In this document: positions 9,626 through 44,424 of the stretch, in pieces
How the letters are laid out: each line of letters opens with the position of its first letter
How positions within the stretch are numbered: position 1 is the first letter of the stretch
Sequence record: OQ223305.1
Length of the DNA stretch: 64,000 nucleotides
Source: Escherichia phage EO1
Strand: one strand, 5' to 3'
Translations under genes and position numbers: made by a program
The notes under the pieces: model-generated
The model's database searches: none
What the model saw: the letters and a program-made list of their open reading frames with translations, nothing else
What the model was told of the DNA's origin: nothing

Positions 9626-10092
9626 ATTACGATAGATTTTATCCCTGTGATTTTGTGAATGGCCCTGGATGCAGGGTCGTTCTTTTCGTTACAGGTTGTT
9701 TGCATAAATGTGAAGGGTGTTATAATAAATCAACATGGAATGCTAGAAATGGTATTCCATTCACTGGAGAGACACTAGAGCAATTAATTGAATGTTTGAA
9801 TAATGATTATATAGAAGGATTAACTATAACTGGGGGTGACCCTCTTTATCCTGATAACAGAGACGTGATTCACTCTGTGGTTCAAACAGTAAAAAATCTT
9901 TATCCCAATAAAAGCATTTGGTTGTGGACAGGACATAAGTTTGAAGATATTAAACAACTAGAAATGCTTAAATATGTTGATGTTATTATTGATGGGAAGT
10001 ATGAAAAAAATCTTCCGACTAAAAAGCTGTGGCGAGGATCAGATAATCAGCGACTTTGGTCAAATACCGATGGGGTGTGGACACATGATTAA
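9622..10092 (+). CDS. nrdG: anaerobic RNR activating protein NrdG (radical SAM)
   Basis: 156 aa; cysteine cluster GCLHKCEGCYNK near the N-terminus; follows nrdD with overlapping stop/start. Confidence 0.85.
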   Translation: MNYDRFYPCDFVNGPGCRVVLFVTGCLHKCEGCYNKSTWNARNGIPFTGETLEQLIECLNNDYIEGLTITGGDPLYPDNRDVIHSVVQTVKNLYPNKSIWLWTGHKFEDIKQLEMLKYVDVIIDGKYEKNLPTKKLWRGSDNQRLWSNTDGVWTHD

Positions 10093-14435: not shown

Positions 14436-15638
14436 ATGAAAGTATGTATTTTTATGGCTCGAGGTCTTGAAGGTTGTGGTGTAACAAAATTCTCACTCGA
14501 GCAACGTGATTGGTTTATTAAAAATGGTCATAAAGTGACTTTGGTTTATGCTAAAGATAAATCATTTACTCGTAACTGTGCACATGATTATAAATCATTT
14601 TCAATTCCGGTTTTATTGGCAAAAGAATACGATAAAACACTTAAGCTGGTAAATGATTGTGATATTCTAATTATCAATTCAGTTCCTGCTACTTCAGTTG
14701 AAGAAGACACTATTAATAACTATAAAAAAATTATTGATAACATTAAACCTTCTGTTCGTGTTGTAGTTTATCAACATGACCATTCTTCTCTTTCTTTGCG
14801 CCGAAATTTGGGATTAGAAGAAACTGTTCGTCGAGCTGATGTTATTTTTAGCCATTCTGATAATGGTGATTTTAATAAAGTTCTGATGAAAGAGTGGTAT
14901 CCAGAAACTGTTTCTCTGTTTGATGATATTGAAGAAGCACCGACCGTATATAACTTTCAGCCTCCTATGGATATTGCGAAGGTTCGGTCAACTTACTGGA
15001 AAGATGTTTCTGAAATTAACATGAATATCAACCGTTGGATTGGTCGTACGACTACATGGAAAGGTTTTTATCAGATGTTTGATTTTCACGAAAAACATCT
15101 TAAACCTGCAGGACTAAGTACTATTATGGAAGGTCTGGAACGTTCTCCAGCATTCATTCCTATTAAAGAAAAAGGAATTCCATATGAGTATTATCGTCTT
15201 CATCAAGTAGACCAAATTAAAATTGCTCCTAATTTGCCAACGCAAATTCTCGACCGTTATGTAAATAGCGAAATGCTTGAGCGCATGAGTAAATCCGGAT
15301 TTGGTTATCAGCTGAGTAAATTAGATAAAAAATATCTACAGCGTTCTTTAGAATACACTCATCTCGAGCTTGGTGCATGCGGAACAATTCCAGTATTTTG
15401 GAAATCTACTGGCGAAAATTTAAAATTCCGTGTTGATAATACTCCTTTGACCTCGCATGATAGCGGTATCATTTGGTTTGATGAAAATGATATGGAATCA
15501 ACATTTGAACGTATTAAAGAACTGTCATCTGACCGAGCTCTTTATGACCGTGAACGTGAAAAAGCTTATGAATTTTTGTATCAGCATCAAGATTCAAGCT
15601 TCTGCTTTAAAGAACAGTTTGACATTATTACAAAATAA
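14436..15638 (+). CDS. a-gt: DNA alpha-glucosyltransferase (hmC glucosylation), 400 aa
   Basis: 400 aa; sequence closely resembles T4 alpha-gt as recalled (…CIFMARGLEGCGVTKFSLEQRDWFIKNGH…); flanked by terminators. Confidence 0.8.
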   Translation: MKVCIFMARGLEGCGVTKFSLEQRDWFIKNGHKVTLVYAKDKSFTRNCAHDYKSFSIPVLLAKEYDKTLKLVNDCDILIINSVPATSVEEDTINNYKKIIDNIKPSVRVVVYQHDHSSLSLRRNLGLEETVRRADVIFSHSDNGDFNKVLMKEWYPETVSLFDDIEEAPTVYNFQPPMDIAKVRSTYWKDVSEINMNINRWIGRTTTWKGFYQMFDFHEKHLKPAGLSTIMEGLERSPAFIPIKEKGIPYEYYRLHQVDQIKIAPNLPTQILDRYVNSEMLERMSKSGFGYQLSKLDKKYLQRSLEYTHLELGACGTIPVFWKSTGENLKFRVDNTPLTSHDSGIIWFDENDMESTFERIKELSSDRALYDREREKAYEFLYQHQDSSFCFKEQFDIITK

Positions 15639-39663: not shown

Positions 39664-39975
39664 ATGGTTTATGTATATGCGATAGTTTACCGAGACAAAG
39701 ACGGATTTACGGCGCCAGTTCCGCTTGATGAACATCGTCCTGCTGTGTTTTTTGAAAGAGAGATTGCTGATAGAGTTTTTACTACTCTCAAAGACCAATA
39801 TAAACTAGCTTTAGGTATGGGAATTCCAAGACTAGTTGAGACTCCACGCAAGTTTTGGTTTAATAAAATAGAAGTTAAACATGTTAAGCCTGATGTAGAT
39901 ACACAAAGATTATATCAACGAATTCTAGATACTGGGCGTATTGTTAGTATTCCAATTGCAGGGACTTTCCGATGA
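39664..39975 (+). CDS. hypothetical protein (103 aa)
   Basis: ORF immediately upstream of dda. Confidence 0.4.
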   Translation: MVYVYAIVYRDKDGFTAPVPLDEHRPAVFFEREIADRVFTTLKDQYKLALGMGIPRLVETPRKFWFNKIEVKHVKPDVDTQRLYQRILDTGRIVSIPIAGTFR

Positions 39976-41291
39976 CATTTGATGATTTGACAGAAGGCCA
40001 GAAAAATGCCTTTAACATCGTTATGAGGGCTATTAAAGAAAAGAAACATCATGTAACTATTAATGGACCTGCTGGTACTGGTAAGACTACTCTTACTAAG
40101 TTCATCATTGAAGCTTTAATATCTACGGGTGAAACTGGTATTATTTTAGCAGCTCCTACTCATGCAGCTAAAAAGATTCTTTCAAAACTGTCGGGGAAAG
40201 AAGCGAGTACTATTCACAGTATTCTTAAAATTAACCCAGTTACGTATGAAGAAAACGTTCTTTTTGAACAAAAAGAAGTACCAGATTTAGCTAAATGCAG
40301 GGTATTAATCTGCGACGAAGTGTCAATGTATGATAGAAAGCTCTTCAAAATTTTGCTTTCAACTATCCCACCGTGGTGTACTATAATTGGAATAGGCGAT
40401 AATAAGCAAATTAGACCTGTTGACCCAGGAGAAAATACTGCTTATATCAGTCCATTCTTTACACACAAAGATTTTTATCAGTGTGAACTTACTGAAGTTA
40501 AACGCAGTAATGCTCCTATTATTGATGTAGCTACTGATGTTCGCAACGGTAAGTGGATTTATGATAAAGTTGTTGACGGGCATGGAGTACGTGGATTTAC
40601 TGGTGATACCGCTTTACGTGATTTTATGGTAAATTATTTTTCAATCGTAAAATCATTAGATGATTTGTTTGAAAATCGCGTAATGGCATTTACGAATAAA
40701 TCTGTTGACAAGTTAAATAGCATTATTCGTAAAAAGATTTTTGAAACTGATAAAGATTTTATTGTTGGTGAAATTATTGTAATGCAGGAACCATTAATTA
40801 AAACATATAAAATTGATGGAAAGCCTGTATCAGAAATTATTTTTAATAATGGACAATTAGTTCGTATTATAGAAGCAGAGTATACATCAACATTTGTTAA
40901 AGCTCGTGGTGTTCCTGGAGAATATCTAATTCGTCATTGGGACTTAACAGTAGAAACTTACGGCGATGATGAATATTATCGTGAAAAGATTAAAATAATT
41001 TCATCTGATGAAGAGCTATATAAGTTTAACCTATTTTTAGGTAAAACGGCAGAAACTTATAAAAATTGGAACAAAGGCGGAAAAGCTCCATGGAGTGATT
41101 TTTGGGATGCTAAATCACAGTTCAGTAAAGTGAAAGCACTTCCTGCATCAACATTCCATAAAGCTCAGGGTATGTCTGTAGACCGTGCTTTCATTTATAC
41201 GCCTTGTATTCATTATGCAGATGCTGAATTAGCTCAACAACTTCTTTACGTTGGTGTAACACGTGGTCGTTATGATGTGTTTTATGTGTGA
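39972..41291 (+). CDS. dda: Dda DNA helicase (SF1), 439 aa
   Basis: 439 aa; Walker A GPAGTGKTT; MTFDDLTEGQKNAFNIVMRAI matches T4 Dda as recalled. Confidence 0.85.
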   Translation: MTFDDLTEGQKNAFNIVMRAIKEKKHHVTINGPAGTGKTTLTKFIIEALISTGETGIILAAPTHAAKKILSKLSGKEASTIHSILKINPVTYEENVLFEQKEVPDLAKCRVLICDEVSMYDRKLFKILLSTIPPWCTIIGIGDNKQIRPVDPGENTAYISPFFTHKDFYQCELTEVKRSNAPIIDVATDVRNGKWIYDKVVDGHGVRGFTGDTALRDFMVNYFSIVKSLDDLFENRVMAFTNKSVDKLNSIIRKKIFETDKDFIVGEIIVMQEPLIKTYKIDGKPVSEIIFNNGQLVRIIEAEYTSTFVKARGVPGEYLIRHWDLTVETYGDDEYYREKIKIISSDEELYKFNLFLGKTAETYKNWNKGGKAPWSDFWDAKSQFSKVKALPASTFHKAQGMSVDRAFIYTPCIHYADAELAQQLLYVGVTRGRYDVFYV

Positions 41292-41297
41292 GGCTAT

Positions 41298-41558
41298 ATG
41301 ATTAACATCAATTCAAAATATTTAAATCGTCTAATAGATGGTATAAGGAAGCATACTAATAAGCAAGATAATCTCGATGTTATGGTAACAGGAGCTGAGC
41401 TCCTTCATAAGCTTTATCTTATAAGTGATACTATATTAGCAATTAAACGAATTGAAAAACAATCATATCACAGTAATACAGATACGGTAATTACACTAGA
41501 TGAAAGTGTCTGTAAATTACTAATTAAATTTGAGGAAGCTATTCGTGGAAATAACTAA
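41298..41558 (+). CDS. hypothetical protein (86 aa), member of a local paralog trio
   Basis: ORF after dda; same size class as the two following ORFs. Confidence 0.4.
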   Translation: MININSKYLNRLIDGIRKHTNKQDNLDVMVTGAELLHKLYLISDTILAIKRIEKQSYHSNTDTVITLDESVCKLLIKFEEAIRGNN

Positions 41559-41790
41559 AGATCAGTTTTATCTGCTTCAAGATAAAGTGAGCGAAATTTA
41601 TGAAATAGCTTATAGTAAAAATCGTAGAAATGTAAAAATTGAATCTAGTAAGTTGAGGCTTCAATTAGAAGAAATTGAACGAGATTTAATTGCGTTAGAA
41701 TTCTTTTGTGGTGAAGTGAAAACTGTTACAATCAGTGATTATGTTTTAGGCGAAATTAGCCATCTTTATAAGGCGATTATTAATGATTGA
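41530..41790 (+). CDS. hypothetical protein (86 aa), paralog
   Basis: C-terminus TISDYVLGEISHLYKAI resembles the next ORF. Confidence 0.4.
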   Translation: MRKLFVEITKDQFYLLQDKVSEIYEIAYSKNRRNVKIESSKLRLQLEEIERDLIALEFFCGEVKTVTISDYVLGEISHLYKAIIND

Positions 41791-42025
41791 ATTAAGTTGG
41801 TATCAGTTTAAATCTCTTATGGCAAATGTTAAAGCTGTCATTGAAGAAAATCCGGGTCCTGAAAATATTACTATTCGCGAAAAAGCTTCAAAGATAGTAT
41901 ACAGTCTTGAAGAGATACAAAAAGACATTGAATCTATGGCAAAATTTATTGATGAGCCTATTAATAAAGTTTATATTCAAGACTATACTGTAGGTCAAAT
42001 TCGCGATTTAGCAAGGAAAATTTAA
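41783..42025 (+). CDS. hypothetical protein (80 aa), paralog
   Basis: C-terminus YIQDYTVGQIRDLARKI resembles the previous ORF. Confidence 0.4.
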   Translation: MIELSWYQFKSLMANVKAVIEENPGPENITIREKASKIVYSLEEIQKDIESMAKFIDEPINKVYIQDYTVGQIRDLARKI

Positions 42026-42709
42026 TGTTTGATTTTATTATAGATTTTGAAACAATGGGAAGCGGCGAAAAGGCAGCTGTTATTGATTTAGCTGTAATTG
42101 CTTTTGACCCTAATCCAGAAGTCGTTGAAACATTCGATGAATTAGTTTCACGTGGCATTAAAATCAAATTTGATTTAAAAAGCCAAAAAGGACATCGTCT
42201 TTTTACTAAAAGCACTATCGAATGGTGGAAGAATCAATCCCCTGAAGCTCGAAAAAAATATTGCACCGTCAGATGAAGATGTAAGCACTATTGATGGTAT
42301 TGCAAAATTCAATGATTACATCAATGCGCATAATATAGATCCTTGGAAATCTCAGGGTTGGTGCCGTGGAATGTCGTTTGATTTTCCAATTTTAGTCGAT
42401 CTCATTCGTGATATTCAACGTTTTAATGGCGTTTCTGAGAATGAACTTGACACATTTAAGTTAGAACCATGTAAATTCTGGAATCAGCGTGATATTCGTA
42501 CCAGAATTGAAGCACTTCTGCTCGTTCGTGATATGACCACATGTCCTCTTCCAAAGGGAACTTTAGATGGATTTGTTGCACATGATTCTATTCATGACTG
42601 TGCGAAAGATATTCTGATGATGAAGTATGCTTTGCGATATGCTATGGGTCTTGAAGATCCTCCGTCAGAGGAAGAGTGCGATCCTCTATCTCTTCCAACA
42701 AAACGATAA
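42025..42709 (+). pseudogene. dexA: dexA (exonuclease A) interrupted by a +1 frameshift in an A7 run
   Basis: N-terminal 83-aa ORF (MFDFIIDFETMGSGEKAAVIDLAVIAF) stops at 42276; continuation is in another frame to 42709. Removing one A from the run at 42252-42258 gives one ~227-aa reading frame. Confidence 0.6.
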
Positions 42710-42715
42710 AAAGTT

Positions 42716-42745
42716 GTTTACTTCCTCGGTTAGTTGTGGTATTAT
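42716..42745 (+). promoter_or_regulatory. early promoter (GTTTAC ... GTGGTATTAT)
   Basis: GTTTAC 42716-42721, TATTAT 42740-42745. Confidence 0.6.
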
Positions 42746-43273: not shown

Positions 43274-43393
43274 TTATGAAATTTAATTATAATCCTGAAT
43301 ACACACCAAATCCGGTAGCTAAACTGATTGATTTTGATGTTGTAAAGCACTTATGTATGCCCTGTTAAACCACTGGAAATTAAGGAACCTACT

Positions 43394-43816
43394 ATGACTA
43401 CCGCCATTGAAATCGGCAAAACCTACAAACTGGTTGAAACTGAAATTAAAACTACTGAACTAAATTTGGGTTATAAAGCATTGACTAATGCTTTTGGTGA
43501 AGGCGAGTTTGTGGTTAAAAGCTTTTCAAAAAGTAACTGGTATGATAAGAATAAAGCTTACGTGATTCGAGTACGCCGTTTAGATAATGATGAAGTAATT
43601 AAAACTATAGTTTTTGAAGCAGAGTTCATCCTCTTTCAAGAATGCGATCCTACTGACCTTCTAACTCATGCGGTAGCTATCAAGACCCCATTTATTTCGG
43701 TTTGTGGTTGGGTAACAGACCAATGGATTGAAGATGGTGTTGAACTTCTGAACGTTGTTCATGCAGGTGATTTTAGCGTAGTACCTCGTAGTGCAGTGGT
43801 AGCTATTTTGAATTAA
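43394..43816 (+). CDS. hypothetical protein (140 aa), paralog A
   Basis: C-terminal region VCGWVTDQWIEDGVELLNVVHAGDFSVVP resembles the next ORF. Confidence 0.45.
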   Translation: MTTAIEIGKTYKLVETEIKTTELNLGYKALTNAFGEGEFVVKSFSKSNWYDKNKAYVIRVRRLDNDEVIKTIVFEAEFILFQECDPTDLLTHAVAIKTPFISVCGWVTDQWIEDGVELLNVVHAGDFSVVPRSAVVAILN

Positions 43817-43818
43817 TA

Positions 43819-43853
43819 GTTTACAAACTCTTGGGACCAGAGTATAATGGTCC
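43819..43853 (+). promoter_or_regulatory. early promoter with TATAAT in a stem-loop
   Basis: GTTTAC 43819-43824; TATAAT 43843-43848 bracketed by inverted repeat GGACCA (43834-43839) / TGGTCC (43848-43853). Confidence 0.65.
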
Positions 43854-43892
43854 TGTGGAGTATAAAATCTTTTTAACAAGTGAGAGATAACT

Positions 43893-44390
43893 ATGATTAT
43901 TAATATTGGTGAAATTGCTCGTGTATCTGATAAATCCCGTTCTAAAGCAGCAGGAAAATTGGTCGAAATTGTAAGCATTCAGCTTAAACACGGCGTTAAA
44001 GATGAAGATTCTGAAGTAAAAGTGCGTATCATTCCTAAAGATGGAAAGTCTAAACCTCAGTTTGGTTATGTTCGATGGAAATTTCTTGAGCCTGCGTTTT
44101 TGAAAGCTGTTCCCGCTAAAGGAATTGAAACGATTGATACTTCGCATGTAGGTGTAGACTTTAAGTGGAAACTCGGTCAGGCTATTAAGTTCGTTGCTCC
44201 TTATGAATTCGAATTTACTGAAGATGAGGAAGGGGTTGTTCAAAAACACCGTACTCGCGCTATGTGTGCATACATTACTGATCAATGGGTAGAAGACGGT
44301 GTTAAGCTGTACAACGCGGTATTTTTAGGAACATACAAAGTCATTCCTGAAAGTTGGATTAAACACTACAGCAAAGCTCGCTGTGCATAA
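43893..44390 (+). CDS. hypothetical protein (165 aa), paralog B
   Basis: C-terminal region MCAYITDQWVEDGVKLYNAVFLGTYKVIP resembles the previous ORF; own promoter at 43819-43848. Confidence 0.45.
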   Translation: MIINIGEIARVSDKSRSKAAGKLVEIVSIQLKHGVKDEDSEVKVRIIPKDGKSKPQFGYVRWKFLEPAFLKAVPAKGIETIDTSHVGVDFKWKLGQAIKFVAPYEFEFTEDEEGVVQKHRTRAMCAYITDQWVEDGVKLYNAVFLGTYKVIPESWIKHYSKARCA

Positions 44391-44424
44391 AGTTTAAATT
44401 TTTTTTTTTCATAAAACTATATAC

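Follow-up and report, generated by a model that had tools for sequence, protein, structure and literature searches.

The dexA locus and its single-base lesion

The window, that is, the whole stretch of DNA analysed here (64 kb of the Escherichia phage EO1 record OQ223305.1), is a segment of a Tequatrovirus (T4-like) genome, and its plus strand runs in the direction of early transcription. On this strand dda (39972-41291) is followed by three small ORFs, dexA, a motB.2-like ORF, two MotB-family paralogues, and cef with the genes after it. The dexA gene, encoding exonuclease A, a DEDDh 3'-5' exonuclease, extends over 42025-42709 (+) and sits at the position typical of its family, with dda and dexA.1/.2 before it and the motB cluster after it. 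Its start codon, the ATG at 42025, overlaps the TAA of the upstream 80-aa ORF. As the sequence is written, the gene is broken by a 1-nt insertion. The frame that opens at 42025 runs into a TGA at 42274-42276 after 83 codons, and its product (42025-42276, +) consists of 77 native DexA residues, including the D7-x-E9 Exo I motif, followed by KYCTVR, so that the chain ends ...EARKKYCTVR. The rest of DexA, residues 77-227, is read by ORF translation and tblastn in the +1 frame (42254-42709, +), which is open from before the A run through to the TAA at 42707-42709. These coordinates confirm the preliminary description, which had identified the gene as dexA, with a frame from 42025 that stops at 42276 and a remainder that continues in another frame to 42709. 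Both halves match DexA in consecutive frames by tblastn, so the split does not come from a chance arrangement of ORFs.

The lesion itself is an A7 homopolymer at 42252-42258 (+) where all relatives examined have A6. The A6 tract spans codons 76-78 of dexA, and the inserted A puts the sequence after codon 77 out of frame. When dexA is aligned with T4 (NC_000866) and ECML-363, one extra A in this run is the sole indel in 685 columns. Deleting one A gives a 684-nt ORF of 227 aa that is identical at 225 of 227 residues to the crystallised T4 DexA chain 8KEL_A; the only differences, L133F and A212P, are both private to the window. The earlier proposal that a single extra A at this run breaks the gene, and that its removal restores a 227-aa frame, is borne out by both the alignment and the match to the crystallised chain. 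The repaired ORF matches the Pfam family PF16473 (DexA / Rv2179c-like DEDDh 3'-5' exonuclease) with E = 2.4e-22 and 79.9 bits against a cut-off of 27, and the 83-aa N-terminal piece alone still matches it with E = 5.9e-13. Profile and match to the characterised T4 enzyme both place the repaired ORF in this family.

In the published structural work on DexA, the catalytic set is given as D7, another acidic residue in the first motif, D119, H186 and D191, with W152 and D169 as the residues that recognise 5hmC (PMC12153337). The second acidic residue is printed as "E12" in a figure legend of that paper; the sequence reads D7-F8-E9. As written, no single polypeptide of the window carries all catalytic residues: D7 and E9 lie in frame 1, and D119, H186 and D191 lie in the +1 frame. 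The 83-aa product contains the first motif only and lacks D119, W152, D169, H186 and D191. Because D119, H186 and D191 are missing, this fragment should be inactive, and no active exonuclease A is expected from the locus as written. In the +1 frame, the first canonical start is an ATG at 42371, which opens a 112-aa ORF holding the remaining catalytic and recognition residues. Ahead of this ATG we found no convincing Shine-Dalgarno sequence on reading the sequence, and the 112-aa ORF alone has no Pfam match. According to the same paper, dexA is conditionally dispensable and is needed on optA hosts (PMC12153337). A promoter-like site (TTTACT-17-TATTAT with a TG, identified by consensus match only) lies between dexA and the next gene at 42717-42745 (+); if it is functional, the downstream genes would be independent of read-through from dexA, and polarity need not follow.

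A second split gene lies 1.1 kb downstream of the dexA A7 run. It is a MotB-family paralogue (PF17613; 43276-43816, +) divided into ORFs of 30 and 140 aa by an extra A at 43344-43346, where the window reads GTAAAGC and the relatives read GTAAGC (A2 to A3). This insertion is also private to the window. In 10 of the 10 relatives that carry this ORF variant, the gene lacks the extra A and is a single ORF of 179-182 aa, and the N-terminal 39 residues of the split ORF are conserved in the ten relatives. Gene callers sometimes call a 140/141-aa form despite an intact long ORF (L006, L080 and L081). The region after the motB.2-like gene reads as a hypervariable accessory cluster. Across 43276-44390 and the corresponding loci L065-L084, the motB.2-like gene is followed by two or three MotB-family paralogues of 136 to 182 aa, depending on the relative. 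In ECML-363 (OL631483.1, 6074-7850), the deposited annotation has no CDS between dexA and an 89-aa ORF; the DNA of that record nevertheless contains intact motB.2-like and MotB-family ORFs, which the public annotation lacks.

Homopolymers elsewhere in the window were also surveyed. A T11 run at 44399-44409 is intergenic, between the MotB gene and the next ORF, and length-polymorphic, with T6-T7 in other relatives; it was considered as a third private expansion and set aside, since a Logan contig, SRR27844721_38 (L086), has T10 there, which makes it a polymorphism of the lineage. A7 runs occur at just two other places in the 64 kb, 10004-10010 and 14724-14730, each within a long ORF and of the same length as in the references. 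In total the window has 47 A6 and 3 A7 runs, counts consistent with an avoidance of longer runs.

Distribution and age of the extra A

The comparison with T4 dexA that the preliminary description had suggested as a check gives A6 in T4 and in every relative examined, against A7 in the window. None of 35 fetched dexA loci carries the extra A (0/35): by blastn of the fetched loci, all 35 homologues have A6 and an intact 684-nt ORF. Among the fetched loci are 25 contigs that were reached through identical Dda, dexA.1-like or motB.2-like neighbour proteins, and all 25 have a 227-aa dexA call. The closest records of the phage collection are 95-98% identical to the window, and the nearest records are 96-99% identical locally. 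A 1101-nt query from the window aligns to 1100 nt in every listed phage record, consistent with A6 in each. Probing of the phage collection gave the same picture: a 41-nt A7 probe, of which every 28-mer seed was forced to span the A7, found 0 records, and the matching 40-nt A6 probe found 87.

We also searched at the protein level with a 27-residue peptide that spans the shift (HRLFTKSTIEWWKNQSPEAR followed by KKYCTVR). By tblastn it matched 485 phage records at at least 99% identity, and the top-ranked matches all end at residue 21. Since matches are ranked by coverage times identity, no high-identity match covers the out-of-frame tail; thus, judged from the top-ranked matches and the ranking order, an extension into the frameshift peptide was found in none of about 496 phage records. 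The A7 pattern had 0 matches in IMG/VR and 0 in the JGI metagenome contigs. The A6 pattern had 39 matches in IMG/VR, and five fetched loci among these proved to be dexA homologues. A degenerate A7 pattern gave 19 matches in GTDB genomes, in unrelated bacteria and MAGs; none of them aligned to dexA by blastn of all fetched loci, and they were treated as chance. Exact look-ups in assembly collections for the 83-aa, the 112-aa and the repaired 227-aa products of the window lineage all came back empty. A conserved split dexA in some lineage was rejected, as phage records, IMG/VR, JGI metagenomes and the identical-neighbour contigs contain no A7 copy of dexA. In these searches, the extra A is private to the EO1 isolate.

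How old could the insertion be? The Logan contig L086 is identical to the window over 40657-42336 (1.68 kb), with the extra A as the sole difference. Downstream of the shift, the codon differences from the nearest relative comprise 14 synonymous and 2 non-synonymous changes, and those private to the window comprise 5 synonymous and 2 non-synonymous changes. The downstream codons thus still show purifying selection (14 synonymous against 2 non-synonymous), which makes the event very young: until very recently, the part after the shift was evolving as a translated reading frame of DexA. The lesion has the form of a recent frameshift allele: it differs from intact orthologues by one inserted base, and the frame downstream has not decayed any further. 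An old pseudogene is ruled out by the synonymous/non-synonymous pattern together with the identity to L086. The insertion is therefore either evolutionarily very young or absent from the DNA.

A mosaic junction lies inside dexA. After the stretch of identity over 40657-42336, ten differences from L086 fall at 42337-42664. This pattern suggests a recombination patch from an unsampled lineage, which would end about 80 nt downstream of the A7 run.

Allele, artefact or recoding

Our findings describe one of two things: a one-base insertion of an ordinary kind, private to the isolate and very recent, in a homopolymer within a dispensable gene, or an error of base calling that looks like such an insertion. 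We give a probability of about 0.5 to the first of these, a real null allele of the dispensable dexA. In the mechanism that we propose, a single A would have been added to the A6 tract at codons 76-78, most likely by replication slippage on the homopolymer, and the extra A would be present in the phage DNA and not merely in the assembly. Translation would then end after 83 residues, and the product of this null allele would retain nothing of the DEDDh active site beyond its first acidic motif. Such A runs are classic spontaneous frameshift hot spots of T-even phages.

The chief rival, which we consider quite possible although short of an even chance, is a sequencing or assembly artefact: dexA would be intact in the phage DNA, with A6, and the additional A of the sequence would be a homopolymer over-call or a consensus error. 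The site is indeed a homopolymer, and several sequencing platforms typically err by a +1 call in a run of 6-7 bases. The A7 allele is unique among the relatives examined, with no other sample carrying it, and the 1.68 kb around the site are otherwise identical to an independent contig. An artefact, too, would leave the downstream frame undecayed. For this lineage, no record elsewhere of the frameshifted or of the repaired protein favours either reading. The remainder of the window, however, gives no sign of homopolymer noise. It is free of ambiguous bases, and no real gene has a nonsense codon; of 255 reference ORFs compared across the 64 kb, 2 are split; 66 of 73 long homopolymers (runs of at least 6 A/T or at least 5 G/C) show no length change against the references; and isolated indels of single-base type number 5 to 9 against each reference, at about 3-4% nucleotide divergence. 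A pervasively error-prone assembly is not supported by these counts. Both splits fall in dispensable genes, and the window's large essential replication genes are free of them. The second insertion can be read in two ways: with two private +A insertions 1.1 kb apart, the assembly could equally be weak at this place, but a homopolymer miscall does not typically turn A2 into A3. A second private frameshift outside a homopolymer, and in an accessory gene, agrees better with real mutations of dispensable genes than with miscalled homopolymers.

Of the three options put forward in the preliminary description, a sequencing error and a genuine inactivating mutation in a non-essential gene both remain live. 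The third, expression by slippage on the A run, is disfavoured as a designed mechanism, and we reject the A7 site as a programmed recoding signal on the features that can be read from it. The main criterion for such a signal is a conserved layout, and the split arrangement is conserved in no relative. The tract is phased CGA-AAA-AAA and contains, formally, an X_XXY_YYZ heptamer, A_AAA_AAA. This heptamer favours a -1 shift, whereas the ribosome would have to shift by +1 (or -2), or the transcript to lose one A, for the DexA frame to be reached. A -1 slip on A_AAA_AAA would read KKILHRQMKM and then meet a stop, after 10 codons. Programmed -1 frameshifting was rejected for this reason and for the lack of a downstream structure: the fold of 42240-42340 (101 nt) has -12.7 kcal/mol with z = +0.72, and 157 of 200 shuffles are at least as stable. 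On reading the sequence near the A7, we saw no Shine-Dalgarno-like stimulator upstream; the A site holds no slow or stop codon, and the codon after the run is an ordinary TAT. In short, a conserved two-ORF layout, a substantial trans-frame product in the favoured direction and a stimulatory element are all absent, and the run of seven A is too short.

Run length bears on transcriptional slippage in particular. T4-type phages transcribe with the host RNA polymerase. E. coli RNA polymerase is reported to bypass indels only on runs of at least 7 T, or of a still larger number of A (PMC6260861), and the documented rescue of frameshifted genes by transcriptional slippage occurs at runs of about 8-9 A or more (PMC1088944), against A7 here. 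Leaky or purposeful slippage would mean that some transcripts lose one A, or that some ribosomes shift +1 on AAA-AAA, so that some full-length DexA is made, possibly at a lowered dose. A +1 re-pairing of tRNA-Lys from AAA to AAA on CGA-AAA-AAA would indeed give the exact wild-type R-K-N-I, and rescue of this general kind is documented, though in longer runs. Against the missing conservation, the missing stimulators, the unremarkable fold, the early -1 stop and the demands of the polymerase, we nevertheless judge such slippage improbable, and any slippage rescue of dexA is expected to be at background level. A further step, in which the A7 would be a low-efficiency switch that yields a small, tuned amount of full-length DexA beside abundant 83-aa fragment, for example to limit attack on the phage's own 5hmC DNA, is very unlikely in our estimate; if true, a T-even phage would be setting the dose of an accessory nuclease, or switching it by phase variation, through a homopolymer. 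Finally, assembly of an active enzyme from the 83-aa N-terminal fragment and the 112-aa C-terminal fragment (ATG 42371) is scarcely credible: the two ORFs together hold all five catalytic residues, but residues 78-115 are missing from both pieces, the second ORF has no convincing ribosome-binding site and no Pfam match of its own, and such an arrangement occurs in no relative.

Significance and comparison with known systems

The main value of this analysis lies in annotation and quality control. The proper annotation of the locus is a frameshifted dexA (a pseudogene or a "sequence to be verified"), not two hypothetical proteins. If the allele is real, EO1 would be a natural dexA null that also has a broken MotB-family paralogue, and it would offer a ready-made control for the roles of DexA in host-DNA scavenging, intron homing and recognition of 5hmC DNA. 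In that case, no growth on optA hosts is predicted. The event is of a well-known kind and has no bearing on open recoding questions; beyond annotation, its possible use is as a natural dexA-null isolate.

Three known systems can be compared with the EO1 locus. The first comprises genes rescued by slippage, such as Thermus dnaX (A9), Shigella mxiE (T9), IS elements (A8-A9) and the poly(A) tracts of endosymbionts (PMC1088944). As in these genes, the frame of dexA is broken within an A run and would be restored in an mRNA that had gained or lost one A. The dexA run, however, has only 7 A, below the productive lengths, and its layout is conserved in no relative.

The second system is T4 DexA itself (NP_049629; PDB 8KEL/8KEN). 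The 227-aa product of the repaired ORF shares 225 of 227 residues with it, and the two genes have the same genomic position (dda, small ORFs, a dexA.1-like ORF, dexA, a motB.2-like ORF) and the same TAATG overlap of the start with the upstream ORF. The copy in the window differs by the extra A after codon 77 and by L133F and A212P, and as written it encodes an 83-aa fragment.

The third system is the frameshift hot spots of T4. In Streisinger's slipped-strand model, A:T runs, for example the A6 runs of rIIB, are hot spots of spontaneous frameshift mutation in T4. The window differs from these cases in that it comes from a deposited genome and not from a selected mutant, and in that its mutational origin is one that we infer. 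Like them, it has a one-base addition in a run of six A, in a T-even gene that is dispensable under laboratory conditions.
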